Positions 12,510 through 44,346 of a stretch of DNA of 64,000 bases are shown one piece after another. Source of the DNA: an uncultured Gemmatimonadota bacterium (GTDB taxonomy: Bacteria > Blakebacterota > Blakebacteria > Blakebacterales > Blakebacteraceae); the NCBI GenBank assembly GCA_964637695.1, contig CAZWVF010000001.1:7445-71444 (forward strand). The letters are read 5' to 3'. The notes under the pieces were generated by a model. It had not been told where the DNA came from and searched no databases. It saw only the letters and a program-made list of their open reading frames with translations. Every line of letters starts with the position of its first letter. The stretch's first letter is position 1. The position numbers and the translations under genes are program-made.

Positions 12510-12851
12510 CACGAACTATTAAATGATCGTTGTCCATTTTCTCAAGGATTATCTGCAATACCAACGCCACAGGACCGGTCTATTAGACATTTTTCTATAA
12601 GCAAATCAAAGCGACGGATCGTTTTGATTAACAGGTCGTGGAACACCGGTCGGAGATTTCAGGTATAGATGTATACAGGTGTTTTATGATTCAGGGCATT
12701 GGAGGTCGAAGGTTCGGGTCCTCCAGGGTGTCTAACTCATTGAGACACTTTGAAGAGTCTGTCGGATGCCGGCGCAAGCCGCAGCCGATGCGATTCTCCG
12801 GCAGACTCCTGAGTATCTGTTGATTGAATCCGACGAAAGGAAGTAACAGTC

Positions 12852-14510
12852 ATGCACCGATCCTCGATTTGCATACCGGCGGCCGGCAGAAAGCACTGCA
12901 CGATCCTCCTGCTGGCGGCGCTTTTCATCACGCCGGTCTATGCCCAGGTTGAGACTCCGCAGATTCAGGAGCCCGAACCGATCCAGGCGACGCAGATAGA
13001 AATGTTCACGCAGGAAGACGCCGAAATGGTCCTCAATCTTCAGCAGGTGATCGATCTGGCGCTCGACCAGTCGTTCCAGGTCTACCAGCTGAAGCAGAGT
13101 TATCTGCAGACCGCCTATTCACTGGAGCAGGCCAGGAGGAACCTGCGAACCAGGGTGGATCTGCAATCGACGATCCCCAGTATCCAACAGGGGCTGAATC
13201 CTACATTCTATTTCAATCCGGCCACTCAACAGCAGGAGCTGGCCTACCTGCGAACCGGGAGGACAAACTTCTATTCCAGGATCACGGTGCAGCAGCCGCT
13301 GATCACTAACGGATCGATATCGCTGGAATCCCGCCTCAGCGGTTTCGATTCCTTCAATGAGCGTGCTTCAGGTGATCCGGCCGAGACCCGTTCGATGTCA
13401 CCCACAATAGGGATCAATTTCAACCAGCCGCTCTTCCAGTACAACGACATCAAGAACGAGCTGAGGAACGCAGAGCTCAGTTTTGAATCCCTTGAGGCCA
13501 CTTATACCCAGGACGAGCTGAGCCAGATCAACGGGATCACCAACCAGTTCTACTCTCTCTTCAGGCAGCAGAAGTCGCTGGCCGACGTTGCGGAGTCATT
13601 CCGGTTGAGCGACATCAATTACCAGATCGGTCTGCGCAAGTACCAGGCGGGTCTGATAGCCGAGGTGGACAAGATGCGCCTGGAAGTGCAGAGGGCCAAC
13701 GACCTCGACCGGCTCGAAAACGCCAGGAACTCTCACGAACAGCAGCAGTTCCAGTTCAACCGCCAGGTGGGACTTCCCCTGGAGACGAAGATCTGGGTGG
13801 TTGCCAGCGAGGAGTACCGACCGATCGAGGTGGACGTCAACCGGGCGCTCGAACTGGCATTCGAGAACAGGGCGGAAATGAGACTTCAGGAGATCACCCT
13901 TGAGCAGTCTGACCTGAACCTGCGCCGCACGATCAGCATGGGTCGTCCAAACCTGCAGCTCAACCTGGGTTACGACCTGCAGGGCAACTCCACACTTGGC
14001 GGACTCAATGCCTCAAATTCCTGGTCGGATCACCTTTCCGAAGCCTTCAATCCCGACAACCAGAGCCCCAACACAAACGTCAGCCTCACGCTGCGGGTGC
14101 CGCTATTCGACTGGGGCCGCAACGAGGCGGCTGTACAGAGGCAGATGGCCGGCATCGCCGTGCAGGAACGAAGGTTGGAAGAGGTAGTGGAGAACCTGAA
14201 AAGAGATGTCATCAACCGCGTACGCTCTGTAGAGAGCGCCATGCGACGCATGGAGATCCAGACGGCCAACCGTGTAGTGGCCGAGAGAAGTTACGAGATC
14301 AGCCAGCTGCGCTACGAACGCGGTGAAACAACGATCATTGAGCTGCTCAACGACCAGCAGCAGTACAACAGCACGCAGGAGAACTTCCTGAGTGCGCTCA
14401 TCACGTTCGAGCAGGCCAAGGCGAGTTTAATGGAATACACGCTGTGGGACTGGGAGACCAACGAACCGGTCCGGCGGCGGACGTCGCCCCCGACGCCATT
14501 CGGCAAATAG
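12852..14510 (+). CDS. TolC-family outer membrane efflux protein (OMF 1)
   Basis: 552-aa ORF with a signal peptide. Long coiled-coil-rich sequence with the repeat structure typical of outer membrane factor proteins. First gene of an efflux operon. Confidence 0.82.
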   Translation: MHRSSICIPAAGRKHCTILLLAALFITPVYAQVETPQIQEPEPIQATQIEMFTQEDAEMVLNLQQVIDLALDQSFQVYQLKQSYLQTAYSLEQARRNLRTRVDLQSTIPSIQQGLNPTFYFNPATQQQELAYLRTGRTNFYSRITVQQPLITNGSISLESRLSGFDSFNERASGDPAETRSMSPTIGINFNQPLFQYNDIKNELRNAELSFESLEATYTQDELSQINGITNQFYSLFRQQKSLADVAESFRLSDINYQIGLRKYQAGLIAEVDKMRLEVQRANDLDRLENARNSHEQQQFQFNRQVGLPLETKIWVVASEEYRPIEVDVNRALELAFENRAEMRLQEITLEQSDLNLRRTISMGRPNLQLNLGYDLQGNSTLGGLNASNSWSDHLSEAFNPDNQSPNTNVSLTLRVPLFDWGRNEAAVQRQMAGIAVQERRLEEVVENLKRDVINRVRSVESAMRRMEIQTANRVVAERSYEISQLRYERGETTIIELLNDQQQYNSTQENFLSALITFEQAKASLMEYTLWDWETNEPVRRRTSPPTPFGK

Positions 14511-17711: not shown

Positions 17712-20700
17712 GTGCACATATCTGAACTATCGATCCGCCGGCCTGTCGCCACCGCCATGTTCTTCCTGGCAGTTGTACTGATAGGTGCGATCAGTTTCAG
17801 CCGTCTTGCCGTAGACCTCTTTCCCAGTCTCTCATTTCCACGACTGGTGGTCTGGACCACATACACCAACGTCTCTCCTGAAGAGGTGGAGCAGTTCATT
17901 TCGGAGAGGATAGAACAGAGCCTTCTGCGGGTTCCCGGCATTCGCGAGATCCACAGCGTCTCACGCGAAGGGGTCAGCCTGGTCACGGTCGAGTTCAACT
18001 GGGATGTGGACATGGAGTATGCGATGCTCAACGTCCGCGAGAAACTCGATATCCTGCGCAGTCAGCTGCCCGAACTGGCAGGTCGTCCCACCATCCTGAA
18101 AGCCGATCCGAACGCCGAACCGATAATGAGCCTTGCTGTATCGGGCAGGGGCGGTCTCCACGAGATCAAGGGCCTGGCCGACAACGTTGTGAAGCGGCGC
18201 CTCGAACAGATTGACGGGGTCGCCCTGGCTGCTGTCACCGGAGGGACCGAAAGGCAGATACGGGTCGAGGTGAACAGGGAGATAGTCGAGTCGCTGGGGA
18301 TCACCCTGCAGCAGGTCCAGAATGCCCTGGCCAACTCCAACATGATGTCCATGGGAGGCAACATCAACCGGGGCAGATTCCAGTGGTACCTGCGCCCGAT
18401 CGGGGATTTCCAGACCATCGAAGACATAGAGCAGGTTGTGGTGGTCAGCAGGGGTTCCCGGCTGGTGAAGATATCAGACATCGGCGAGGTCGTGGACGGC
18501 TTCAAGGAACGGGACAACCTGACCCGCTTCAACGGTTCGGAGAGCATCGGTATCCTGGTACAGAAGGAGGCCGGCAGCAATACCAGCCAGGTCTCTTCCA
18601 AGGTGCATGAAGTTCTGGATGAACTGGAAGTGGAATACACCGGACTCGACGTGGCGATAGCCTTCGACCAGGCCGAATTCGTAAACAACAGCATCGGCAA
18701 TGTGATCTGGGCGATCGCCCTCGGAGGCCTCTTCGCATTCCTGATGCTCTTCTTCTTCCTGCACGATATCAGGAATCCTCTGAACATCGGGCTGGCCATA
18801 CCAATTTCGATCATCGCCACATTCAGCCTCCTCTATTTCGCCGGTATCACTCTCAACATGATGAGTCTCGGCGGGCTGGCACTTGGTGTCGGTCTGCTGG
18901 TCGACAACTCCATCGTTGTGCTGGAGAACATCTTCAGGCACCGGGAGGAGGGTGAAGACCGCTTCGAAGGAGCGATAAATGGTGCGCGCGAGGTGGCGAT
19001 GGCCGTAACCGCCTCCACCTTTACGACCATCAGCGTCTTCCTGCCGATAATCTTCGTCCAGGGTGTCGCCGGGCAGCTCTTCCGCGACCAGGCTCTGACA
19101 GTGGCGTTCAGCCTTCTGGCTTCACTGATAGTATCGCTGACCATTCTGCCGATGATGGCCAGCCGGTTTCTGCACATGGAGTCGTTCATAAAGGAGAAGC
19201 TCGAAGCCGACAGGTCTGCCGGGAGAGATGCAACCGGGACGGCCGGAGGAGCTGCCGGCGTGATAGAAGAATTTACGCCGCCCGGGAAGCCTGCCGGATT
19301 CTTCAAGCGCATTCTTCTGGTCGTATCGTGGCCTTTCAGGAAGCTGTTTAAGCTTGTCAGGTGGGTGTTCCGACTGGCCGGCGGATTGATGAATGCAGCA
19401 GGCCGCATCCTGATGCTCGGTTTCTCTTCGGCGCTCCGGAATGTATCGCAGGCGGCCCGGAAAACGACGGCGCCTCTCTTCCGCGGTTTCGATCGCGCTT
19501 TCGAACGGTTCTCGAACATCTACCACAACGCACTCGAATGGTCGCTCGACCACCGCAGCAGGATCCTGGCCTTCTGCGGGGTGCTCATTCTGCTGGCACT
19601 GTGGATCGGGTACAGACTGGATAAGCGTCTGATACCGCAGGTAGATCAGGGGGAATTCAGCATCTCGATGGTGCTGCCGGCCGGTTCCAGCCTGGAGTCT
19701 ACATCCGAAGCGGCAGCCGTCATCGAAGGCTGGCTGCTCGAAATGGAAGAGGTACAGCACGTATTCATGAATGCGGGTTTGATCCGGAGTGAAAGCGCGC
19801 TGGGCAGCCAGGATTCAGACATAAACATGGCCACGCTCAGGGTGCGGCTGAAGCCGAAGGCAGAGCGCAACACATTCGAGATAGTATCCGAGCTGCGCCA
19901 GCGGGGTACTCAGCTCTATGGAGCCGAGCTGACCTTCAATACAGGGGAAACGACCTTTACAGAGATCCTGGGCACCAGCCAGGCCGATCTGGCGGTCAAG
20001 GTGCGCGGGCTCAACCTCGATGTCATGCAGAAGCTGGCAGACGGGGTTGAGGAAAAGCTGGGCGACGTGGAGGGCCTGCGGGATATCAATTCGGATTTCG
20101 CCATCGGCAAACCGGAGATCCGGCTCACGGTGGACCGGCGCGTCACCGAGCAGTACGGCCTTTCTGTCAGGGCGGTAGTGGATATGGTCTCCTCGACGAT
20201 AAAGGGGAACATCGCTACCGAGTTCCAGGACTTCGACAGGAAGGTTGAGGTTCTGGTCAGGGAGGGGGAGGCCGACCGGAAATCCCTTCAGCAGATCCTC
20301 TCTATGGGATTACCCCTTCCCACCGGCGGCGGGGATCGGATACCCCTGCGCGAGCTGGTGGACTGGCGCTACACCACCGGACCCAACGAGGTGAGAAGGG
20401 AAGCTCAGAACAGGCAGATCACGGTTTTTGCCAGCGTCGAGGGCCGCCGCCTCGATGACGCGATCGCCGAGGTGGAATCGCTGATGCTCGGCATGGCGGT
20501 ACCCGACGGTTATGAAATCGTGGTCGGGGGTGTGAACGAAGAGATGAGACGGTCGTTCAGGAGTCTTTTCTTCGCCCTCGGGCTGGCGATCCTGCTGGTC
20601 TACATGATCCTCGCTGCACAGTTCGAAAGCCTGATCCATCCCTTTACCATCATGTCAACCGTACCTCTGGCAGTGATTGGCGTGGTGCTCGCCCTGCAGA

Positions 20701-21119
20701 TATTCGGCGGGGGGATCAACATCATGAGCCTTGTTGGAATGGTCGTGCTGACCGGAATCGTGGTGAACGATGCGATCATCAAGGTCGACTTCATTAACCA
20801 GCTGAGGAACAGGGGACGTCCTCTGCGCCAGGCGATAGTAGAGGCGGGTCATTACCGACTGCGACCGATCATGATGACCACAGTCACGACGGTGCTCGGG
20901 TTGACGCCGTTGGCCCTCGGAATAGGTGCAGGCGCGGAACTGCGCAGTCCGCTGGCCGTGGCGGTGATAGGGGGGCTCATCTCGGCCACCGGTCTGACCC
21001 TGATCGTGATCCCGGTCGTCTATTCAATCATGGAAGGCATCAGGGGCGAAAGTCTGGGAGACCGCTCCACCTCATTCCAACCGGGTGGTGCGGGCATGCA
21101 CCGTGAGGTCAGGTTGTGA
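17712..21119 (+). CDS. RND efflux transporter permease (HAE1/AcrB-like), paralog 1
   Basis: 1135 aa with 12 TM helices and two large periplasmic loops. N-terminus RRPVATAMFFLAVVLIG. Carries an enlarged cytoplasmic loop of ~70 extra residues. Confidence 0.9.
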   Translation: MHISELSIRRPVATAMFFLAVVLIGAISFSRLAVDLFPSLSFPRLVVWTTYTNVSPEEVEQFISERIEQSLLRVPGIREIHSVSREGVSLVTVEFNWDVDMEYAMLNVREKLDILRSQLPELAGRPTILKADPNAEPIMSLAVSGRGGLHEIKGLADNVVKRRLEQIDGVALAAVTGGTERQIRVEVNREIVESLGITLQQVQNALANSNMMSMGGNINRGRFQWYLRPIGDFQTIEDIEQVVVVSRGSRLVKISDIGEVVDGFKERDNLTRFNGSESIGILVQKEAGSNTSQVSSKVHEVLDELEVEYTGLDVAIAFDQAEFVNNSIGNVIWAIALGGLFAFLMLFFFLHDIRNPLNIGLAIPISIIATFSLLYFAGITLNMMSLGGLALGVGLLVDNSIVVLENIFRHREEGEDRFEGAINGAREVAMAVTASTFTTISVFLPIIFVQGVAGQLFRDQALTVAFSLLASLIVSLTILPMMASRFLHMESFIKEKLEADRSAGRDATGTAGGAAGVIEEFTPPGKPAGFFKRILLVVSWPFRKLFKLVRWVFRLAGGLMNAAGRILMLGFSSALRNVSQAARKTTAPLFRGFDRAFERFSNIYHNALEWSLDHRSRILAFCGVLILLALWIGYRLDKRLIPQVDQGEFSISMVLPAGSSLESTSEAAAVIEGWLLEMEEVQHVFMNAGLIRSESALGSQDSDINMATLRVRLKPKAERNTFEIVSELRQRGTQLYGAELTFNTGETTFTEILGTSQADLAVKVRGLNLDVMQKLADGVEEKLGDVEGLRDINSDFAIGKPEIRLTVDRRVTEQYGLSVRAVVDMVSSTIKGNIATEFQDFDRKVEVLVREGEADRKSLQQILSMGLPLPTGGGDRIPLRELVDWRYTTGPNEVRREAQNRQITVFASVEGRRLDDAIAEVESLMLGMAVPDGYEIVVGGVNEEMRRSFRSLFFALGLAILLVYMILAAQFESLIHPFTIMSTVPLAVIGVVLALQIFGGGINIMSLVGMVVLTGIVVNDAIIKVDFINQLRNRGRPLRQAIVEAGHYRLRPIMMTTVTTVLGLTPLALGIGAGAELRSPLAVAVIGGLISATGLTLIVIPVVYSIMEGIRGESLGDRSTSFQPGGAGMHREVRL

Positions 21120-24100
21120 AAAGTTCAGTCCTGACAAATCAGTGCCTGCGCCGTCCGGTTACCACAGCGATGGTCTTTACGGTCCTGCTGGCCATAGGTG
21201 TGGCCAGTCTGATCCGGATACCCCTGGAGACCTACCCGGAGCTGGAGATACCCAGGATGACCGTAAGGGGAAGCTGGAGCGAAGCGAGCCCTGAAGCGGT
21301 CGAGGCCTTCATGACCTCACCTCTGGAAGCAGAGGCCAGCACCCTGGCAGGCATCAAGGAGGTAAAGAGCACTTCGAGCCGGGGCAATGCCAGGATCGAT
21401 CTGGAGTTCGCTCCCGATACAGATATGGACTTCGCCAGGCTCGAGCTGAACGAGAAGGTCTCCCGGCTCAGGGAATCACTTCCCCCCGGCGTCAATATCT
21501 CGATAAGCCAGTACGTACCGCCCGACATGCAGGAGGAGAACCTGCTGCAGTACACATTTACAGGGATGCAGAGCATCAACGAACTGCAGAAGTACGCCCA
21601 GGACCTGATCGAACGTCCGATGAGCGTGGTGAGCGGCGTGGCCGGCGTCTACATATCGGGTGGAGAGCAGAGGCAACTGAGGGTTGTCCTCGACAGGCAC
21701 AAGACGGAATCGCTCGGTATTGACCACATGGAGGTGGCCCGCAACCTCCAGCAGATAGCCAGCATCGTCGAAACGGTGGGCCTGATAAAGAAGGACACCT
21801 ACCAGTACAACCTGGTGGTCAGGGACGATTTCAATGATCTGAACACCCTGCGCAACGCCATCGTGGCCAGAAGGAGCGATCGTTTCATCCGGCTCGGTGA
21901 GATAGCACGTGCAGTGGATGGATACTCAGAGCCCAGAGGTTACCAGCGGCTGAACGGCCGGGCGAGGGTGGCGATCTTCATCAGTGCGGTGGCGGGCAGC
22001 AACATCATAGATGTAGCCCGGAGGGCGAAGGCGCGGATGGAAGAGATCCGCGAGACCCTGCCGGCGGGAACGCAGCTGATCGAGGAGAGAGACAACAGCG
22101 AAACGATCAGGAACGAGCTGGATGGACTCGAATTCCGCAGCGTACTGATCATATTCCTGATCTTCATCGTACTGCTCGTCTTCCTGCGCGGCATAGCCAA
22201 TCCGCTGATAATTCTCTCCAGCATCGCTACCAGCGTGCTGTTGACGATCTCCCTCTTTTACTTCACGGGCGCATCTCTGAATATGATGACCCTGGCGGGG
22301 CTGGCACTGGGATTCGGGATGATGGTCGACAACTCGATAGTGGTGCTCGACAACATCCACCGGCACAGGGAGCGGGGCAGCGGCAGGCTGGCGGCGGCCA
22401 GCATAGGCACTTCGAGGGTGATGATGCCGATCCTGGCCGGGACGGCTACAACCATCATCGTTTTCCTGCCCTTCCTCTACCTGCAGGGTGAGCTGAGGGT
22501 CGTTTACATGCCCTTTGCCCTGGCGGTGGTAACGAGCCTGGCGTGCTCTCTGGTGGTTTCCTTCACGCTGATACCCAGCCTGGCTGCACGCGTGCTGGGA
22601 ACGCCGGCCGCCCAGGCCGGAGCTGGGGGTGCCCGGTTCGACCCGGGATCAGGCAACAACCAGGTCAAAGAGGATCCGTGGAAGCTGGGAGAGCTGGAGA
22701 TCGAGGAGGAGGCCGGGATCGTTCACGGCATGGATAAGGGAGCAGAGCATACTCTCAAGATAGGGGACAACATTTACCAGAGGGTTCTCCGTTTTATGCT
22801 GACCCACAAGATCATAGTCATACTCATCGTCCTGCCTGTCTTTGCCGGCTCATATCACGTTTTCGATACGAAGGTGACCAAGGGGCGCATCTGGCGGGCG
22901 TATGGACCCAGTCGGGAATACCTCAACGTCAGCATGAGAGCCCCAACCGGGTCAGATCTGGATGTGATGGAGGATCTGGTCAACAAATTCGAAGCGAAGC
23001 TGCTGCCGATTTACGAGTCGGGCCAGATAGAAGACTTCGAGACGAACATTACATCCCGCTATGCCGGCATCAGGATCAGCTTCCCCGAGGATGTGATCAG
23101 GGGGGGGATTCCCTATCTGGTCAAGGATCAGCTTTCGGTGTTCGCAGGCCTGCTGGCCGGCGGTATGAATATCAGCGTCACCGGATTCGGCGACTACTTT
23201 TCGGCGGGCAGCTTTGGGAGTTCATCGTACAGCTCGAGAATCAAGTTCCTTGGTTACAACTACCTGAGGGTGAAGGAGCTGGCGGAGGAGCTGGCGGAGC
23301 GGCTGAAGCGCAACCCCAGGATCCGCGAGGTGGACACAAATTACGGATCGTTTTCGCGCGGTGCCGAAAAGCAGATAGTGCTCCGGTTCGACCGTGAGGC
23401 GCTGGCTGCCCACGGGCTGACCGCCAGGGATATGATCTACTTCGTCGGCCGCTACGTCAGGACGACATCGGGTGGAAGGGTCACCTACGGAGGGGAGGAG
23501 ATCGATTTCCAGGTTAAGGTGGATGGCTATGACGATCGCGACATCATTGAACTGATGAACGCAACAGTAACTACACGCAACCGTGGCAAGGCACGGATGC
23601 GCGATCTGGGCGAAATGACCATCGAGCCGGTCATGGGTACGATCCAGAGGCAGGACCAGCAGTACACGCGTACCGTAGGGTATGAATTCCGCGGTCCATA
23701 CAAGATGGGTGAAAGGGTTCGCGAACAGATCATGGATTCCACGATCCTGCCCAATGGCTACGAGTTCGATGAGAGCGAACGGATCTGGCAGACCGAGGAG
23801 GAGAAGCAGCAGCTCCTGCTGGTGCTCGGCTTTGCCCTTCTGCTTGTCTACATGCTGACCGCCGCACTCTTCGAGTCCTTCTTCCACCCCTTCACGATCA
23901 TCCTGACCGTTCCACTTGCGATGATCGGCGTATTCCTCGGCTACTGGTTCTTCAGCAAGGGATTCGACAGGTCGGCCTACGTCGGAGTAATCCTGATGGG
24001 GGGGATCGTGGTCAACAACTCGATCATCCTGGTCGACCATATAAACTCCCTGCGCCGCTTCCTGCCGCGTCGCGACGCGGTGGTGCGGGCAGCCAGAGAG

Positions 24101-24364
24101 AGGGCCCGTCCGATCCTGATGACTACATTCACAACCGTGATCGGACTGATGCCGCTGATAATCCTCGCCGAGGAAGGGCAGGACCAGTGGTACACCCTGG
24201 CGTTTACGATCTGCGTGGCGCTGCCTGTGGCCACATTCTTCACCCTGACCATTATTCCCCTCGTCTACGAGCTGATGGATTCGATGCAGACACAGTTCAG
24301 GAAGGGTATCGGAACGCTGGCGCTGGCTGCGCAGGGTGAGCAGGCTTCTCCCGAGAAATCCTGA
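21116..24364 (+). CDS. RND efflux transporter permease, paralog 2 (MdtB/MdtC-like pair with the preceding gene)
   Basis: 1082-aa RND protein with N-terminus RRPVTTAMVFTVLLAIG. Its GTG start overlaps the upstream stop (GTGA). Confidence 0.9.
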   Translation: MKSSVLTNQCLRRPVTTAMVFTVLLAIGVASLIRIPLETYPELEIPRMTVRGSWSEASPEAVEAFMTSPLEAEASTLAGIKEVKSTSSRGNARIDLEFAPDTDMDFARLELNEKVSRLRESLPPGVNISISQYVPPDMQEENLLQYTFTGMQSINELQKYAQDLIERPMSVVSGVAGVYISGGEQRQLRVVLDRHKTESLGIDHMEVARNLQQIASIVETVGLIKKDTYQYNLVVRDDFNDLNTLRNAIVARRSDRFIRLGEIARAVDGYSEPRGYQRLNGRARVAIFISAVAGSNIIDVARRAKARMEEIRETLPAGTQLIEERDNSETIRNELDGLEFRSVLIIFLIFIVLLVFLRGIANPLIILSSIATSVLLTISLFYFTGASLNMMTLAGLALGFGMMVDNSIVVLDNIHRHRERGSGRLAAASIGTSRVMMPILAGTATTIIVFLPFLYLQGELRVVYMPFALAVVTSLACSLVVSFTLIPSLAARVLGTPAAQAGAGGARFDPGSGNNQVKEDPWKLGELEIEEEAGIVHGMDKGAEHTLKIGDNIYQRVLRFMLTHKIIVILIVLPVFAGSYHVFDTKVTKGRIWRAYGPSREYLNVSMRAPTGSDLDVMEDLVNKFEAKLLPIYESGQIEDFETNITSRYAGIRISFPEDVIRGGIPYLVKDQLSVFAGLLAGGMNISVTGFGDYFSAGSFGSSSYSSRIKFLGYNYLRVKELAEELAERLKRNPRIREVDTNYGSFSRGAEKQIVLRFDREALAAHGLTARDMIYFVGRYVRTTSGGRVTYGGEEIDFQVKVDGYDDRDIIELMNATVTTRNRGKARMRDLGEMTIEPVMGTIQRQDQQYTRTVGYEFRGPYKMGERVREQIMDSTILPNGYEFDESERIWQTEEEKQQLLLVLGFALLLVYMLTAALFESFFHPFTIILTVPLAMIGVFLGYWFFSKGFDRSAYVGVILMGGIVVNNSIILVDHINSLRRFLPRRDAVVRAARERARPILMTTFTTVIGLMPLIILAEEGQDQWYTLAFTICVALPVATFFTLTIIPLVYELMDSMQTQFRKGIGTLALAAQGEQASPEKS

Positions 24365-32806: not shown

Positions 32807-33610
32807 TTAAAAGAGATCGATCACTATTCCCAGCAGGAAATCCACACCCGACCAGTCGATCGTCAATGAATCGCCGGTAACCGAGTTGGTCAGTTTGTCG
32901 CCGGCCTCATCGGTGGGATCTCCCACGTCACCCAGTCGCATGCGGACCGATCCCGCCAGGCTCAGGGGACCGCCCAGATCGTAAATGCCCGTCCACGAAA
33001 AGAGGGCTCCCACCCCCGTTGCGGTTCCCTCCTGATCGATCATGGCCAGAGATCCCATGCCCGCGGCCAGTGACAGTTTCGAGGCGGGGAAGAGAACGGC
33101 GGCGGCACCGACGTGGTAGGAGAGCTTCTCTGTGAACTGGAAGGAGCGTTCGATTCCCGCATGGAGAGGCCACCCCTCAGCGCTGTAATAGAGGAAACTC
33201 TCCACCGGCCCCGATCCCGGGTCGAATGTGAAGTCGATGCGGGAGTTATCCGCCACTCTCTCCATGCCTGCAAAGATGCTCCAATCGGGGCCGAGGCGAT
33301 ATCTGACCTCAATCCCGAAAGTCAATCCGTCGGTCAACTGATTGAGACCCTTATCGAGTCCGGCACCGCCGTCGTTGACGGGAGTTGTGAGCAGCATGTT
33401 GTCGACCCGGATCATATTGTTGACAGATCTCTGGGAAAAGGATGCCCAGCCTCCGAAGAGGGAGATGCTCAACCTGCCGCCACCGGAAGCAACTCCCTTC
33501 GCAGCGGCTGTCGACGCTGACTGTGCACGGATCTCTCCGCCGTGGATCAGCACTGTGGCGGTCAGAGGGATCAGAAGCAGTCGTAAACCTGGATGCAGGC
33601 GCATCAGCAT
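32807..33610 (-). CDS. Outer membrane beta-barrel protein (hypothetical)
   Basis: 267-aa ORF with a signal peptide, alternating amphipathic beta-strand pattern rich in G/S/T/Y, and a C-terminal Phe. Confidence 0.55.
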   Translation of the reverse strand: MLMRLHPGLRLLLIPLTATVLIHGGEIRAQSASTAAAKGVASGGGRLSISLFGGWASFSQRSVNNMIRVDNMLLTTPVNDGGAGLDKGLNQLTDGLTFGIEVRYRLGPDWSIFAGMERVADNSRIDFTFDPGSGPVESFLYYSAEGWPLHAGIERSFQFTEKLSYHVGAAAVLFPASKLSLAAGMGSLAMIDQEGTATGVGALFSWTGIYDLGGPLSLAGSVRMRLGDVGDPTDEAGDKLTNSVTGDSLTIDWSGVDFLLGIVIDLF

Positions 33611-33728: not shown

Positions 33729-33907
33729 GGAGCCTGCCGGAGAAACGCTCCGGCTGCGGATTGCGCTGGCATCCGGCTGGCGGCGTTGGTTTTCACAGAA
33801 GGTCCTCGACGTAGCACAGCGGCTACGTCTCCGGGTCTTCCGCTCAACCGCCTGGCCATCCTGCACCAGCGCAACCCTCGCTATCGTCGGATTCTCCGGC
33901 AGGCTCC
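33729..33907 (+). repeat. Structured ~180-bp intergenic repeat element, copy 1
   Basis: ~80% identical to 38146-38324. It has a 16-bp terminal inverted repeat (GGAGCCTGCCGGAGAA / TTCTCCGGCAGGCTCC), inner helices TTGCGCTGG/CCAGCGCAA and GAAGGTCC/GGGTCTTC, and an apical hairpin GACGTAGC-ACAGCG-GCTACGTC. Noncoding. Confidence 0.7.
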
Positions 33908-33992: not shown

Positions 33993-34865
33993 CTAACGGA
34001 TCTTTCTCAGAAGTTCGCCGGCTTCTTCCTTGTACCGGGCATCTTCAAAGAATACGGCCGGCAGACGACCAACAGCCTCGAATTCCTGGCGGGCCATGCT
34101 GTCCTGGTCCATCTCCAGGTAGGTTTTACCCAGCTCGAGGTGATGGTTGATGTTGTCCGGCTCAACCTGGAGTGCCCGCAGAAAGAGGCTTACCGATTCT
34201 GTATTGGATGCAGGAGGCAGTCCGCCGAAAATGATCTTCGCAACAGCTTTGAGGGCCCAGGAGAGGTTGGCTACCTCCCTGTGCCAGCGGGCCAGCCCAT
34301 GCAGGGAACCGGGATGCCGGGGATCGATCGAGAGTGACTTTTCAAAGACCTCCTTGATCTCCTTCGACATGTTCACCTTCTTCTTGCCGCCGCGATGCAG
34401 TGCGAGCCTGCCGAGGGCCTGCCCGAGCTGGAAATGGCCCTCTGCATCTGCAGGATTGGCTGCGACGGCCCGACGTGCGAAGGCGACCGCCTCTTCGTAC
34501 ATCGGTTCCTGCTCCTTTTTATCCAGGCTGCGGGCGCGCCCTGTAATGTTATCCGACATGAGACAGAGCAGAACGTAATTATCGGGATCGGCGTTGAGAG
34601 CGGGTCTGATAAGGTCAACCGCCGCAGCATACTCTCCGGCTATGTTGAGTTCATCAACGCGGGCCTGCAGTTGAGAAATGTCCTGCTGGGCACTGGCCGG
34701 AACAGGTGCAAGGATGAGCACCGCAAATGAGAATGCCAGGACATATTCTGCACTTTTATACAAACGAAAACTGGACAAGTGCGTCTTCTCCTTTAGAAGG
34801 GGATTGGTGTCAGGGGTTGTGTGGATGGTAAGCGCCCGGAGCGATTCTGGCAAGCACCTGCTCAT
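33993..34865 (-). CDS. TPR-repeat protein with signal peptide (hypothetical)
   Basis: 290-aa ORF with a hydrophobic signal segment (VLAFSFAVLILAPVPASAQQ) followed by tetratricopeptide-like helical repeats. The true start is possibly a TTG downstream of the annotated ATG. Confidence 0.5.
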   Translation of the reverse strand: MSRCLPESLRALTIHTTPDTNPLLKEKTHLSSFRLYKSAEYVLAFSFAVLILAPVPASAQQDISQLQARVDELNIAGEYAAAVDLIRPALNADPDNYVLLCLMSDNITGRARSLDKKEQEPMYEEAVAFARRAVAANPADAEGHFQLGQALGRLALHRGGKKKVNMSKEIKEVFEKSLSIDPRHPGSLHGLARWHREVANLSWALKAVAKIIFGGLPPASNTESVSLFLRALQVEPDNINHHLELGKTYLEMDQDSMARQEFEAVGRLPAVFFEDARYKEEAGELLRKIR

Positions 34866-37361: not shown

Positions 37362-38138
37362 ATGACAGAACAGGAAGAGACCGGATCGATTGAATCCCCC
37401 GTGCCCGAAGAATCTGGAGCCGGAATCGCAGAATCGGTCAGTTTCGTTCAGCAGGTTATCCTCGTTTTCACGGATCCTGCGAGCGTGTTTGAAAAGCTGG
37501 TGGCACATCCCAGGTGGATCGGGGCATTTCTGCTTGTGATGGTTGTTTCGATAGCCGGAACGCAGGCCTCCTATCCATTGATGATGGATATGCAGAGGAA
37601 GATGGCTGAGCGGAACATCGAGAACCGGCAGCTCACTCCTGAGCAGGAAGAGATGGCTTTGCAGCGGTTCTCACGGGCCGCAACGCCTGCGACACGCATC
37701 GTAACGGTGGTCTTCCAGGCATTAGGTCAGCTGATCTGGCTCGTTATAATGGCCGGCATCCTGATGTTCGGCGGGAATATCCTCCTGGGTGGAGAGTCGA
37801 CCTTCAAGACTGTGATGGCGATTGCGGCGTACTCGTGGCTTGTGCTGATCCCCAAGGTTCTGCTCACCGTGCCGTTGATGCTCGCCAAGGGGAGTGCGGC
37901 CGTCTCCACCAGCCTTCAGATACTGATACCCTCAGACCGGTGGATGACACCACTGGGCGCAGCCCTGGGTGCAGTTGACCTTTTCTCAATCTGGATGATC
38001 GCTCTCGTTATAACGGGCATCTCGATCGCCTACAGGTTCAGCCGGGCCAGAGCTGCAATACTGGTGATCAGCCTCTACCTGCTGATGGTGCTCGTCGGTA
38101 TCGGGCTGATGGCCGTTTTCGGCAGCATGATGGTATAA
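37362..38138 (+). CDS. Yip1-domain integral membrane protein
   Basis: 258-aa ORF with a hydrophilic N-terminus followed by five TM helices, consistent with the Yip1-family fold. Confidence 0.55.
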   Translation: MTEQEETGSIESPVPEESGAGIAESVSFVQQVILVFTDPASVFEKLVAHPRWIGAFLLVMVVSIAGTQASYPLMMDMQRKMAERNIENRQLTPEQEEMALQRFSRAATPATRIVTVVFQALGQLIWLVIMAGILMFGGNILLGGESTFKTVMAIAAYSWLVLIPKVLLTVPLMLAKGSAAVSTSLQILIPSDRWMTPLGAALGAVDLFSIWMIALVITGISIAYRFSRARAAILVISLYLLMVLVGIGLMAVFGSMMV

Positions 38139-38145
38139 GCACATA

Positions 38146-38324
38146 TGAGCCTGTCCGAGAAACACTCCGGCTGCGGCCTACGCTGGCATCCAGCTGGCGG
38201 CGTTGGTCTTCGCAGAATATCCTCGACGTAGCGCAGTGGCTACGTCTCCGGGTATTCCGCTCGACCGCCTTGCCATCCGGCGCCGGCGTAATCCTCGCTA
38301 TCGTTGGTTTCTCGGACAGGCTCA
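38146..38324 (+). repeat. Structured ~180-bp intergenic repeat element, copy 2
   Basis: 18-bp perfect terminal inverted repeat (TGAGCCTGTCCGAGAAAC / GTTTCTCGGACAGGCTCA). Inner helices TACGCTGG/CCGGCGTA and GAATATCC/GGGTATTC, and an apical hairpin GACGTAGC-GCAGTG-GCTACGTC. It starts 7 nt after the yip1 stop and ends 41 nt before the TolC-like gene start. Confidence 0.7.
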
Positions 38325-38365
38325 TACTGCAGAAAGAGGAAAATAAAATCTTCAGGAGCAACAAA

Positions 38366-39703
38366 ATGGCACAATACAGGTACCGGTTTCCGCTCGCTCT
38401 TCTAACGGTGATCGTTCTGGTCGCCGGTTCAGAACCTGTGTCCGCCCAGCAGCCCCTCAACCTCGATTCGTGCATTGTGGAGGCGCTGGCACATAATCCG
38501 CAGATCGGCAGGGCCCGGCAGCAGGTGAAACTGAGCGAACTGCAGAGGCGTCAGGCCTCCAGTGCACTTCTGCCGTCGCTTTCCCTCACCGGCGCCTTCT
38601 CCAGGTATACCAGCGTATCGCCCCAGAGGCTCCTCAATCCAGCGACGAACCAGATCGTGGAGGGAAGCTCGACCGCCCTGACCACGATGACATACTATTC
38701 GGGCCTCAATCTCTCACAGTCCCTTTACAACAGGTCGACAACGGCTCTTTACACCCAGGCGAGGGCAGGGGAGCAGACCGCCATTGCAGAGGCCGAAATG
38801 CAGAGCCAGCTGGTGGTGCTGCAGGTCTACCAGGCCTACTACTTCCTGCTGCGCGCCCAGCGGAACCTGGAAGTGGCCGAGACGGACACAGGCTACAACA
38901 CAGAACTGCTGCGGCAGGTGAAGACGATGTTCGAGATGGGCAACAGGGCGAAGGTGGATGTCCTACGTCAGGAAAGTGCCCTGGCACAGTCGCAGCAGCG
39001 CCTGATCTCGGCAGGGAACAGCGTCAAGAAGGCCAGGGCCGAGCTGAATTTCCAGATGGGTGCGGATCCGACGCGTCCCCTGGAGATAGTTGACGACCTG
39101 GAGCTGGTACCGCAGGAGGTTTCATTCGAAGCCTCTCTCGAGCAGGCAATGGTGTCGCACCCCGTTATCCGGCAGGCGTCGCTGAGGATCACGGCAGCCG
39201 AAGCCGGAGTCAATGCGGTCGCCGCCTCCCGCTACCCTTCCATGAATCTTTCGGGGAACTATTCGTGGCGGGGAGACTCATATCTCGACATTACCGACGC
39301 CTTCTCCAGCGACTACACATGGAGTGTCGGTGTCGGATTGTATCTGAACATTTTCGACGGTATGCGCACCGGGCTCAACCTGCAGAAAGCGCAGGTAAAC
39401 CTTGCGGGAGCCGAGAGGGACAGGTTCGATGCCGAACGGAATGTCATACGTGATGTTCACGGTGCGGTTCTGGATCTGCAGGAGGCCGAGCAGGTCCTTA
39501 AGACCGCCCGGCGAGCCGTAGATCTGGCCAATGAGGCTCTTCGGCTGGCCGAGGAAATGTTCCGGATCGGTTCGATGACACTGCTGGAAGTTAATGCCAG
39601 CCAGTTCGACCTGATAAATGCGCAGTATCAGGAGGTGCAGGCTCTGTTTAACTTGAAGATAGCCCGGGCCAGTCTCGATTATTCGATGGGCCTCCTTCGT
39701 TGA
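38366..39703 (+). CDS. TolC-family outer membrane efflux protein (OMF 3)
   Basis: ~445-aa protein with a signal peptide (MAQYRYRFPLALLTVIVLVAGSEPVSAQQ) and the TolC repeat architecture. The track ORF starts at 38270 inside the repeat element. An ATG at 38366 is preceded by AGGAG. Confidence 0.82.
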   Translation: MAQYRYRFPLALLTVIVLVAGSEPVSAQQPLNLDSCIVEALAHNPQIGRARQQVKLSELQRRQASSALLPSLSLTGAFSRYTSVSPQRLLNPATNQIVEGSSTALTTMTYYSGLNLSQSLYNRSTTALYTQARAGEQTAIAEAEMQSQLVVLQVYQAYYFLLRAQRNLEVAETDTGYNTELLRQVKTMFEMGNRAKVDVLRQESALAQSQQRLISAGNSVKKARAELNFQMGADPTRPLEIVDDLELVPQEVSFEASLEQAMVSHPVIRQASLRITAAEAGVNAVAASRYPSMNLSGNYSWRGDSYLDITDAFSSDYTWSVGVGLYLNIFDGMRTGLNLQKAQVNLAGAERDRFDAERNVIRDVHGAVLDLQEAEQVLKTARRAVDLANEALRLAEEMFRIGSMTLLEVNASQFDLINAQYQEVQALFNLKIARASLDYSMGLLR

Positions 39704-41871: not shown

Positions 41872-43107
41872 ATGAATACTCTCAGATTCCTGGTTGAACT
41901 TCGTGAGAGTATCCTGGCCGCATTCCGCGCGCTGCGGGCGAATCTGCTCAGGTCGGTTCTCACAACGCTCGGTATAGTAGTCGGGGTTACAGCTGTGATC
42001 TCGATAATCAGCCTCATTCAGGGGCTCGACAGAACCTTCCGTGCCGAAGTGGCCAGCCTGGGGACCAATGTCGTCTACGTGAACAAGTACTCGTGGATCA
42101 ACATGGGGGATTTCTGGAAGTACAGGAACAGGAAGAACATCACCCTCAAACAGGCGGCCGCACTCGTCGAACAGGTCACCCTGCCGGTTGCTGCTTCCAA
42201 TTCTGTGAGCACCTCTTCCAATGTGAGATGGCAGGGGCGGACCGCCGGCGGCGTTTCGATCGAGGGACACACTCCCGACGGCAGGATAGTGCACGGGCTC
42301 GACCCCGAAAGAGGCAGGTTCTTTACAGATGTGGAAGCGAACGAACGCCGCCAGGTAGCCGTGCTGGGACACGGTCTCTGGTCGGACCTCTTTGAAGAAC
42401 GTGATGCTCTCGGAGAGAGGGTGCGAATTGGTGGTCACGCCTTCACCGTAATAGGGATAATGCCCGAACAGGGCAGCATCCTCGGAATGAGCCAGGATAA
42501 CCGGGTTATAGTACCACTCGAAACTGTGCTCAAGCTCTTTGGAACGCGCCGTTCCATCGGTATCGCCCTGCTGGCACCCAACGCCGAATCGATCCCCCTG
42601 ATAGAGGAAGAGGCACAGGGTATCATGCGGCGTATCCGCCAGATCCCGCCCGGCGAGGAGGACGATTTCGAATTCAACCGCCAGCAGATGCTTGTCGATC
42701 TCTTCCGCAGTCTGACGGCGGGTCTCTTTGCTGTGATGGTGGGCGTGGCTTCACTCTCGCTGCTGGTGGGTGGAATCGGGATCATGAACATCATGCTGGT
42801 GTCGGTTACGGAGCGCACAAGGGAGATCGGCGTGCGCAAGAGCGTGGGGGCAAAGCGTCGCGACATCATGTGGCAGTTCCTGGTCGAATCGATCGTTGTG
42901 AGCGGAGTGGGCGGTGTGATCGGGATGATTGCCGGCATCGGGATAGCCTTCGTTATCGCCGCGGCGACACCCCTTCCTGCAGCTGCCCCCATCTGGGCGA
43001 TCCTGCTCGGCCTCTCATTCAGTACATCAGTAGGGCTCTTCTTCGGAATCTACCCGGCGGCCAAGGCGGCAGGACTCGATCCGATCGTAGCCCTCAGGTA
43101 TGAATAG
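41872..43107 (+). CDS. ABC transporter permease, MacB-periplasmic-domain + FtsX family (paralog 1)
   Basis: 411-aa ORF with an N-terminal TM helix, a large periplasmic domain and a C-terminal FtsX 3-TM domain (IGIMNIMLVSVTERTREIGVRKSVGA). Confidence 0.85.
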   Translation: MNTLRFLVELRESILAAFRALRANLLRSVLTTLGIVVGVTAVISIISLIQGLDRTFRAEVASLGTNVVYVNKYSWINMGDFWKYRNRKNITLKQAAALVEQVTLPVAASNSVSTSSNVRWQGRTAGGVSIEGHTPDGRIVHGLDPERGRFFTDVEANERRQVAVLGHGLWSDLFEERDALGERVRIGGHAFTVIGIMPEQGSILGMSQDNRVIVPLETVLKLFGTRRSIGIALLAPNAESIPLIEEEAQGIMRRIRQIPPGEEDDFEFNRQQMLVDLFRSLTAGLFAVMVGVASLSLLVGGIGIMNIMLVSVTERTREIGVRKSVGAKRRDIMWQFLVESIVVSGVGGVIGMIAGIGIAFVIAAATPLPAAAPIWAILLGLSFSTSVGLFFGIYPAAKAAGLDPIVALRYE

Positions 43108-43116
43108 GGTAGGCAC

Positions 43117-44346
43117 GTGCCGATAGGGATAAGGGAGACAGGACGACTGGCGGCCACCTCGCTGATTGCAAACCCTCTCAGGACTCTGCTGACCAGCCTG
43201 GGTATAATCATCGGTGTGCTGGCCGTTGTGGGCATGAGCAGCCTGATAGAAGGATTGAACCAGTACGTCACAACCGAACTGAGCCAGGTCGGAAGCGACA
43301 CATTCTACATACAATCAAGGCCCAGCATAGAGATCCAGGTGGGGGGACACAGCAACAGGCAGGACTGGGAAGACCTGACAATCGAAGACAAGAGGGCCCT
43401 GGAAGACAACGCTCCATCGATACTCTTCGTATCAGCCTACTCCACCCACTTCGGTGTGGAGATCCGCTACGGCGGTGAAAAGACCAATCCCAATGTGTTG
43501 CTCTACGGCGCCGACCAGTACCTGCCCAGACTGCAGGGGCTCGACCTGGATGCGGGACGGTTCCTGGCCCCGATAGATGACACCAACCGCAGGAATGTGG
43601 CGATCCTCGGAGTCGACGTGGTGGAGACGCTCTTCCCCAATATCGATCCGCTGGGCAGGGAGATCCGGATAGACAGTCACCGCTACCGGGTGATCGGCAT
43701 ACTGGAACGTCAGGGAGAATTCCTGGGATTCAGCCAGGACAACCTGGTCATCATTCCCGTCTCCTCCTTCAGAAAGTACTGGGGCCGCCGCAGTGAGATA
43801 CAGATGGCCGTCATGGCCCGCACGGGTCGTATGCAGGAGGCGATAGACGAATCGATCGTGGTGCTGAGGCTCCGGAGGGAAGTACCGCCCGGTGAACCGA
43901 ACAATTTCGAGATAATGACGGCAGACGCGATCCAGAAGACCATGGACACGCTGATAATCGGCATAAGCCTTGTGATGGTGGGTATTGCCAGCATCAGCCT
44001 TCTGGTCGGCGGTATCGGCATCATGAATATCATGCTGGTCTCTGTTACGGAACGGACGCGTGAGATCGGGATCCGCAAGGCAACAGGGGCCAGAAGGGGC
44101 GATATCACAAGGCAGTTTCTGGTGGAAGCGATTGTGCTGAGCGGGGTCGGGGGAACTGTTGGTACTCTGCTTGGCGTCGGAATGGGTCTGCTGACAGGTG
44201 CCGTTACGCCGCTTCCGGCTGCGGTTCCCGTCTGGGCGCTTCTGGCGGCTATCCTCGTGTGCGGCGGCATCGGCGTTGGATTTGGAGTATATCCGGCCAT
44301 GAGGGCTGCAAGGCTCGATCCGGTCGAAGCACTGCGTTACGAGTAA
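43117..44346 (+). CDS. ABC transporter permease, MacB-periplasmic-domain + FtsX family (paralog 2)
   Basis: 409-aa paralog of the preceding gene with the same motif (IGIMNIMLVSVTERTREIGIRKATGA). Confidence 0.85.
   Translation: MPIGIRETGRLAATSLIANPLRTLLTSLGIIIGVLAVVGMSSLIEGLNQYVTTELSQVGSDTFYIQSRPSIEIQVGGHSNRQDWEDLTIEDKRALEDNAPSILFVSAYSTHFGVEIRYGGEKTNPNVLLYGADQYLPRLQGLDLDAGRFLAPIDDTNRRNVAILGVDVVETLFPNIDPLGREIRIDSHRYRVIGILERQGEFLGFSQDNLVIIPVSSFRKYWGRRSEIQMAVMARTGRMQEAIDESIVVLRLRREVPPGEPNNFEIMTADAIQKTMDTLIIGISLVMVGIASISLLVGGIGIMNIMLVSVTERTREIGIRKATGARRGDITRQFLVEAIVLSGVGGTVGTLLGVGMGLLTGAVTPLPAAVPVWALLAAILVCGGIGVGFGVYPAMRAARLDPVEALRYE

Follow-up and report, generated by a model that had tools for sequence, protein, structure and literature searches.

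The 64,000-nt stretch of DNA analyzed here (the window) carries two full-length copies of a 179-nt element, both on the plus strand: copy 1 at 33729-33907, which scores 194 bits in nhmmer, and copy 2 at 38146-38324. An earlier reading of these letters alone (the sequence-only reading) had proposed two copies in the same orientation at these positions, and both are present. That reading had put their identity at about 80%; the repeat pair is real, and the identity that we measure is 86% over 177 ungapped nts, or 27 differences in 179 positions (85-86%). Each copy is bounded by an 18-bp terminal inverted repeat. In copy 1, the left repeat GGAGCCTGCCGGAGAAAC (33729-33746, plus strand) has one mismatch to the terminus of the family described below, and the right repeat (33890-33907, minus strand) has two. 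In copy 2, the left repeat is TGAGCCTGTCCGAGAAAC (38146-38163, plus strand) and the right repeat is at 38307-38324 (minus strand). The two ends are complementary at 16 of 18 positions in copy 1, and at all 18 both in copy 2 and in the family consensus. A TA dinucleotide, the target-site duplication of copy 2, stands directly on its left (38144-38145) and on its right (38325-38326). Copy 1 has the degenerate flanks AA and TG, and a single substitution would turn either of them into TA.

Minus-strand genes stand on both sides of copy 1, an ORF at 32807-33610 and a TPR protein gene at 33993-34865. Copy 2 sits in the 227-nt spacer between two plus-strand genes, yip1 (37362-38138) and the outer-membrane efflux gene OEP (38366-39703), 8 nts past the yip1 stop and 41 nts ahead of the OEP start. 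Since the neighbors of copy 1 are on the minus strand and those of copy 2 on the plus strand, co-transcription with them would yield opposite strands of the element.

Minus-strand ORFs run over both copies, and their similarity is confined to the 62 residues that the repeat itself encodes. A Pfam search of these ORFs reports nothing above threshold, several frames of the element are open simultaneously, and some copies have stops. On these grounds we reject a coding element, in agreement with the sequence-only reading, which had taken the element to be noncoding and the ORFs to be alike through the repeat only. A comparison with Rfam, which that reading had proposed as a check, reports no family at gathering score in the whole 64-kb window (1-64000), not even the tRNA model. 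For the element itself and a permissive E-value cutoff (E <= 10), the Rfam matches are all at chance level (E >= 0.17). The best of them is MIR1437, a model of a plant microRNA precursor, which a long hairpin resembles by chance (E = 0.17, 21.8 bits vs. a threshold of 168).

The fold of each copy is a single long, imperfect hairpin in which the termini of the copy form the closing stem. Every helix sequence quoted in the sequence-only reading is found in the copies, and the stable fold that it described, closed by the element termini, is well supported: the plus-strand RNA folds with -97.5 kcal/mol for copy 1 and -102.2 kcal/mol for copy 2 (z = -7.1 and -8.4), and for each copy none of 200 shuffles is as stable. 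The same reading took the U-G wobbles, as valid on the plus strand only, for a sign that the plus strand is the structured one, and there the data disagree. The minus-strand RNAs fold with -108.8 kcal/mol (copy 1) and -107.1 kcal/mol (copy 2), and for alignments of 16 copies the consensus fold has -100.2 kcal/mol on the minus strand vs. -84.3 kcal/mol on the plus strand. Changes on one side of a pair produce a G.T, valid on the plus strand, 11 times, and an A.C, valid on the minus strand, 17 times. As single-stranded DNA, the copies fold with about -51 kcal/mol (z about -6). Because the minus strand of each copy is more stable than the plus strand, the fold is not specific to a strand. The element body is a quasi-palindrome, and either strand, whether DNA or RNA, forms a long hairpin.

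How much of this hairpin is maintained by covariation? Between the two window copies, four pairs are altered on both sides and are still Watson-Crick, and seven are altered on one side only. Three of the four compensated pairs fall in the 18-bp terminal inverted repeat, where paired change is to be expected because the same transposase must recognize both ends. The compensatory changes claimed from the two copies hold family-wide. In the alignment of 16 copies, 15 of 63 pairs have changed on both sides, as compared with 3.0±1.6 in shuffled alignments (none of 500 reaches 15) and with 4-8 in slid controls. The reverse complement of the alignment has 17 of 65 such pairs (shuffles 3.7±1.5, slid controls 4-9). 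Covariation is equally strong on either strand. We also evaluated the body by itself, leaving out the terminal repeats and the most divergent copy. In the 15 copies of this set, 10 of 46 pairs have changed on both sides (shuffles 2.2±1.2, slid controls 1-5). This covariation is outside the terminal repeats, so recognition of the ends by a transposase is no explanation for it. The covariation in the body is real, and it points to neither a strand nor a molecule.

The ends of the element connect it to known mobile DNA. Its 18-bp terminus, GGAGCCTGTCGGAGAAAC, is the exact left end of four metagenomic insertion sequences (ISs) of 1572-1753 bp (L038, L134, L089, and L054), whose right ends match it at 13-16 of 18 positions. 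These ISs are flanked by C-TA...TA-G and contain one ORF apiece, 459-466 aa in length. The Pfam domains DUF772, DDE_Tnp_1, and DDE_Tnp_1_6 are present in all four ORFs, and the three that were scored against the NCBIfam model NF033551 (IS1182 family) obtain 384-400 bits, with a cutoff of 270. The nearest annotated relatives of these transposases on plasmids have 44-49% identity and carry the name IS1182 family. As an example, the IS in plasmid pOT10-1 of Roseomonas sp. OT10, which PGAP annotates as IS1182 family, has the ends GGAGCGTGTCCCGGTAAC and GGAGCCCGTCTCGGTAAC and the flanks CTA...TAG. The terminal motif GGAGC..GTC..G..AAC occurs in the element as it does in IS1182-family ISs, and flanks of C-TA ... 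TA-G are common to both as well. On the other hand, those ISs carry a transposase, whereas the element has 179 bp without a transposase, and its relation to the IS sequences that we have seen is confined to the 18-bp ends and does not extend into the body. A tblastn search of the 64-kb window and of the MAG loci fetched finds no IS1182 transposase gene, and a text search of the literature for the terminus sequence returns unrelated primers only.

Two side observations concern this terminus. The transposases of the four ISs are only 52-58% identical and yet the ISs have the 18-nt left terminus in common; for transposases at that identity, the conservation of the end is unusually strong. In viral contigs, the degenerate terminus has 17 single-strand matches; none of the 17 fits the element profile, so we take them as chance matches.

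The element belongs to a dispersed family. Species-representative genomes were scanned with the apical hairpin pattern, and 12 more copies are found in two MAGs labeled Gemmatimonadota and Zixiibacteriota, many of them at contig ends. A scan of metagenomes with the 18-nt terminus GGAGCCTGTCGGAGAAAC reports at least 120 loci, and a profile search places the 179-nt element at about 25 loci among the metagenome matches listed. The full-length copies amount to 16 distinct ones, drawn from the two MAGs and from ten or more metagenomes. Metagenome and MAG contigs often end within the element (L002, L003, L006, L007, L009-L011, L013-L015, and others), and these breaks lower the confidence in any MAG-level taxonomic assignment of the copies.

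TA stands directly on both sides of 13 of the 16 distinct full-length copies, including copy 2, and the usual pattern is C-TA/GGAGCC...GGCTCC/TA-G. These flanks can be read in two ways, either as TA with element ends GGAGCC...GGCTCC, or as CTAG with element ends GAGCC...GGCTC. Four copies (L004, L111, L152, and W2) are compatible with a 2-bp duplication only, and judging from these flanks a 2-bp duplication of TA appears to fit better than a 4-bp duplication of CTAG. A 3-bp TNA duplication is excluded because under it the flanks form no direct repeats. Published tables give the IS1182 family 4-bp direct repeats (PMC3281130, PMC3852290); ISPse1 of Paracoccus, a member with 1653 bp and inverted repeats matching at 16 of 16 positions, has 4-bp direct repeats (PMC3281130). 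Set against that tabulated length, the flanks of our element appear to be better described as the 2-bp TA.

Shorter forms of the element also exist. A form of about 55 nts consists of the left 53 nts of the element fused to its right tip at a common CAGGC, and it occurs with an identical junction in at least five loci. One of these is in the window at 12757-12809 (minus strand), a decayed 53-nt match (nhmmer E = 3.6e-9) that is intergenic, 43 nts upstream of an ORF at 12852-14510. A micro form of 23 nts, GGAGCCTGTCGGAGAAACGCTCC, is joined at GCTCC and has at least four loci (L079 1140-1162, L102 1505-1530, L113 1395-1417, and L072 4125-4146), two of them flanked by CTA...TAG. Both forms seem to have arisen by deletion across the hairpin, between 5-nt direct repeats (CAGGC for the 55-nt form, GCTCC for the 23-nt form), although the 23-nt form may instead be a footprint left by excision of the MITE.

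Metagenomes of soil and rhizosphere have the 18-nt terminus in front of another, different palindromic element of about 125-130 nts (CTAGAGCGATGAGAAGGGTCCAGCTGC...GCAGATGGGCCCTTATCATCGCTCTAG), with 4-10 variable bases between the two. This arrangement is found in 47 metagenome loci among the matches listed, for instance L059 (reverse complement 229-380), L092 (227-380), and L107 (1519-1670). Some copies have an additional internal insert (L084, L105, and L107, minus strand), and the right end does not have the 18-mer. It looks like a composite, or like a second non-autonomous family on CTAG sites.

For copy 2 we can compare the occupied site with an empty one. In three syntenic contigs, with Yip1 proteins 79-82% identical to that of the window, the gene order exbB-exbD-exbD-tonB-yip1-OEP is kept, and the yip1-OEP spacer has 73-85 nts and does not have the element (L153 3934-4018, L155 2775-2847, L156 2768-2852). 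The spacer of the relatives reads ...GCACATATCATC...TTCAGAAAGAGG, and the corresponding letters of the window are GCACA-TA-(179 nt)-TA-CTGCAGAAAGAGG. In the MITE-free spacers, a stretch of about 16-27 nts is locally duplicated; GGATAAGCACNTATCAT, for example, occurs twice in L155. As a result, apart from the TA the empty site does not equal the flanks in the window. Toward copy 1, the contigs of these relatives stop within the TPR gene.

Taken from the sequence, the element is very probably a 179-bp non-coding MITE with the ends of an IS1182-family IS, unable to move by itself. It is classed as a MITE because it carries the ends of such ISs and no transposase. Its 179 nts are well within the size of bacterial MITEs, which stay below about 400 bp. 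It is ordinary mobile DNA, and it is no new RNA gene. The sequence-only reading had argued that it is not a MITE. This claim does not survive the 18-bp ends that match IS1182-family left ends, the TA duplications, the empty site, and the deletion derivatives; a match to a transposon end, which that reading had itself named as telling against its proposal, is provided by the IS1182-type termini. Nor does compensatory change speak against a MITE, as had been argued: the mobile hairpin repeats bcr1 show the same (PMC3184786), and the terminal repeats are expected to covary. Long RNA hairpins are a classic feature of MITEs (PMC3184786). The earlier label of an ERIC/Correia-like structured repeat was right in kind, since this is a dispersed noncoding hairpin that covaries; its other half, a candidate RNA gene, is contradicted by the transposon hallmarks and by the strand symmetry.

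From the biology of the family, we would expect the DDE transposase of an IS1182-family IS, encoded elsewhere, to recognize the 18-bp ends GGAGCCTGTCGGAGAAAC. Acting in trans, this transposase would insert the element at TA, preferably within CTAG, duplicating the TA. Alternatively, the duplication would be of the 4-bp CTAG, with the outer G/C counted as part of the target.

A MITE can still have been put to use by its host. The hairpin could have been exapted, or be selected copy by copy, as a cis-acting RNA element: a co-transcribed hairpin of about -100 kcal/mol might act as a site for RNase III or other processing, as an mRNA stabilizer, or as a transcription attenuator, and since both strands fold, its orientation would not matter. 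Both window copies are indeed between co-directional genes, with copy 2 tightly placed between yip1 and OEP, and the covariation of the body extends beyond the terminal repeats. There are precedents in the RNA-level compensatory changes of bcr1 (PMC3184786) and in ERIC and Correia elements, whose effects depend on orientation (PMC3184786 and general background). Yet the relatives run the same operon without the element, the hairpin has no T-tract terminator in the scan that we made for one, and the copies of the family are found in convergent, divergent, and co-directional settings alike. We consider this role unlikely.

A free-standing, plus-strand structured RNA gene with two paralogous copies is much harder to maintain, and we regard it as very unlikely. 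In its favor, the plus-strand fold is stable, covariation is above controls, and there is no coding signal. But the minus strand has the more stable fold and no less covariation, and the 11 G.T vs. 17 A.C one-sided changes give no preference for plus-strand wobbles. The plus-strand transcript that the sequence-only reading favored is thus at odds with a fold and a covariation that are strand-symmetric, and also with the placement of the copies, as the two in the window are oppositely set relative to their surrounding genes and a rough assignment from ORFs makes 3 of the family copies with co-directional neighbors sense and 4 antisense. A scan of the element for promoters and terminators finds no promoter-like site, only a weak internal motif. 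The transposon ends, the TA duplications, the empty site, and the absence of any Rfam match at gathering score count against an RNA gene as well.

REP palindromes have 20-40 nts and neither terminal inverted repeats nor target-site duplications. An intergenic, GC-rich, multi-copy hairpin with a stable single-stranded DNA fold (-51 kcal/mol, z about -6) does recall a REP/REPIN-type palindrome mobilized on single-stranded hairpins by a RAYT (IS200/IS605-like) transposase, but its 179 nts far exceed a REP, it is bounded by 18-bp terminal inverted repeats and flanked by TA duplications, and its ends match DDE-type IS1182 elements instead of IS200/IS605, which makes this origin extremely improbable.

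What remains to be explained about the MITE is the covariation of its body. Some pressure or process keeps its two arms paired. Quasi-palindrome template switching is a known mutational mechanism in bacteria. A DNA-level process of this kind, or hairpin-templated repair, in which a change in one arm of the hairpin would be copied onto the other arm, is our leading explanation, at somewhat less than an even chance. Selection for fold-back among the master copies that propagate is by our estimate a possibility to be taken seriously, if not one that we would expect. A host-level RNA role we judge improbable as the source of the body covariation.

The individual ingredients have precedents. In the archaeon Methanosarcina acetivorans, MITEs of 160 and 169 nts derive from the IS1182 family, with ISMac2 as partner (PMC3852290). 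Compared by description, they are like our element in their size of about 160-180 nts, terminal inverted repeats, multiple copies, and an IS1182-family partner, and unlike it in their archaeal host, inverted repeats of 25-26 nts, and direct repeats of 4 or 0 (PMC3852290). In the Bacillus cereus group, the bcr1 repeats are likewise mobile, about 155 nts long, and keep their predicted structure by compensatory changes (Klevan et al. 2007, reviewed in PMC3184786); they differ in their 5-bp direct repeats, in a cruciform-like fold of two stem-loops, and in sequence and host. Correia elements, or nemis, of Neisseria are also small hairpin MITEs with a TA duplication, often co-transcribed with their neighbors (PMC3184786 and general background). 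They are distinguished from our element by other termini, another host, and a partner transposase that is not IS1182. In Correia elements, IHF sites and processing by RNase III have been demonstrated. The ERIC sequences of enterobacteria are imperfect palindromes of about 127 bp, intergenic in either orientation, which form a hairpin RNA. Our element is similarly an intergenic imperfect palindrome found in either orientation. We know of no partner transposase or clear target-site duplication for ERIC, whereas for this family an IS1182-type partner transposase and a target-site duplication are evident.

IS1182-derived MITEs (PMC3852290) and compensatory change in mobile hairpins (PMC3184786) are therefore known already; this family, which is not in Rfam, is probably a new addition to them. 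The main value of describing it is for annotation, as these elements break metagenome assemblies and create spurious ORFs. A MITE can be mistaken for an RNA gene, since changes that look compensatory are seen in quasi-palindromic mobile DNA. Moreover, a widespread 18-bp terminus is now tied to IS1182-family transposases in uncultured bacteria of sediment and soil, and the family offers a tractable case for asking why the hairpins of MITEs remain paired. It is doubtful, in our view, that the fold-back body has a function as a nucleic-acid structure and is more than a by-product, with IS1182-type transposases requiring a hairpin or cruciform to move short non-autonomous elements, or with hosts keeping the hairpins as operon-internal elements for RNA processing or insulation. 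If it had, the 18-bp terminus would mark a large cross-phylum superfamily of non-autonomous elements (the 179-, 55-, and 23-nt forms together with the soil composite), served by transposases only 52-58% identical to one another.

The window has two further pairs of direct repeats, 42732-42914 / 43971-44153 (D2) and 18827-18952 / 22252-22377 (D3). We rejected both as kin of the MITE, to which they are unrelated: each pair lies inside tandem paralogous genes, at 41872-43107 and 43117-44346 for D2 and at 17712-21119 and 21116-24364 for D3, and the repeats of these pairs are 72-73% identical.
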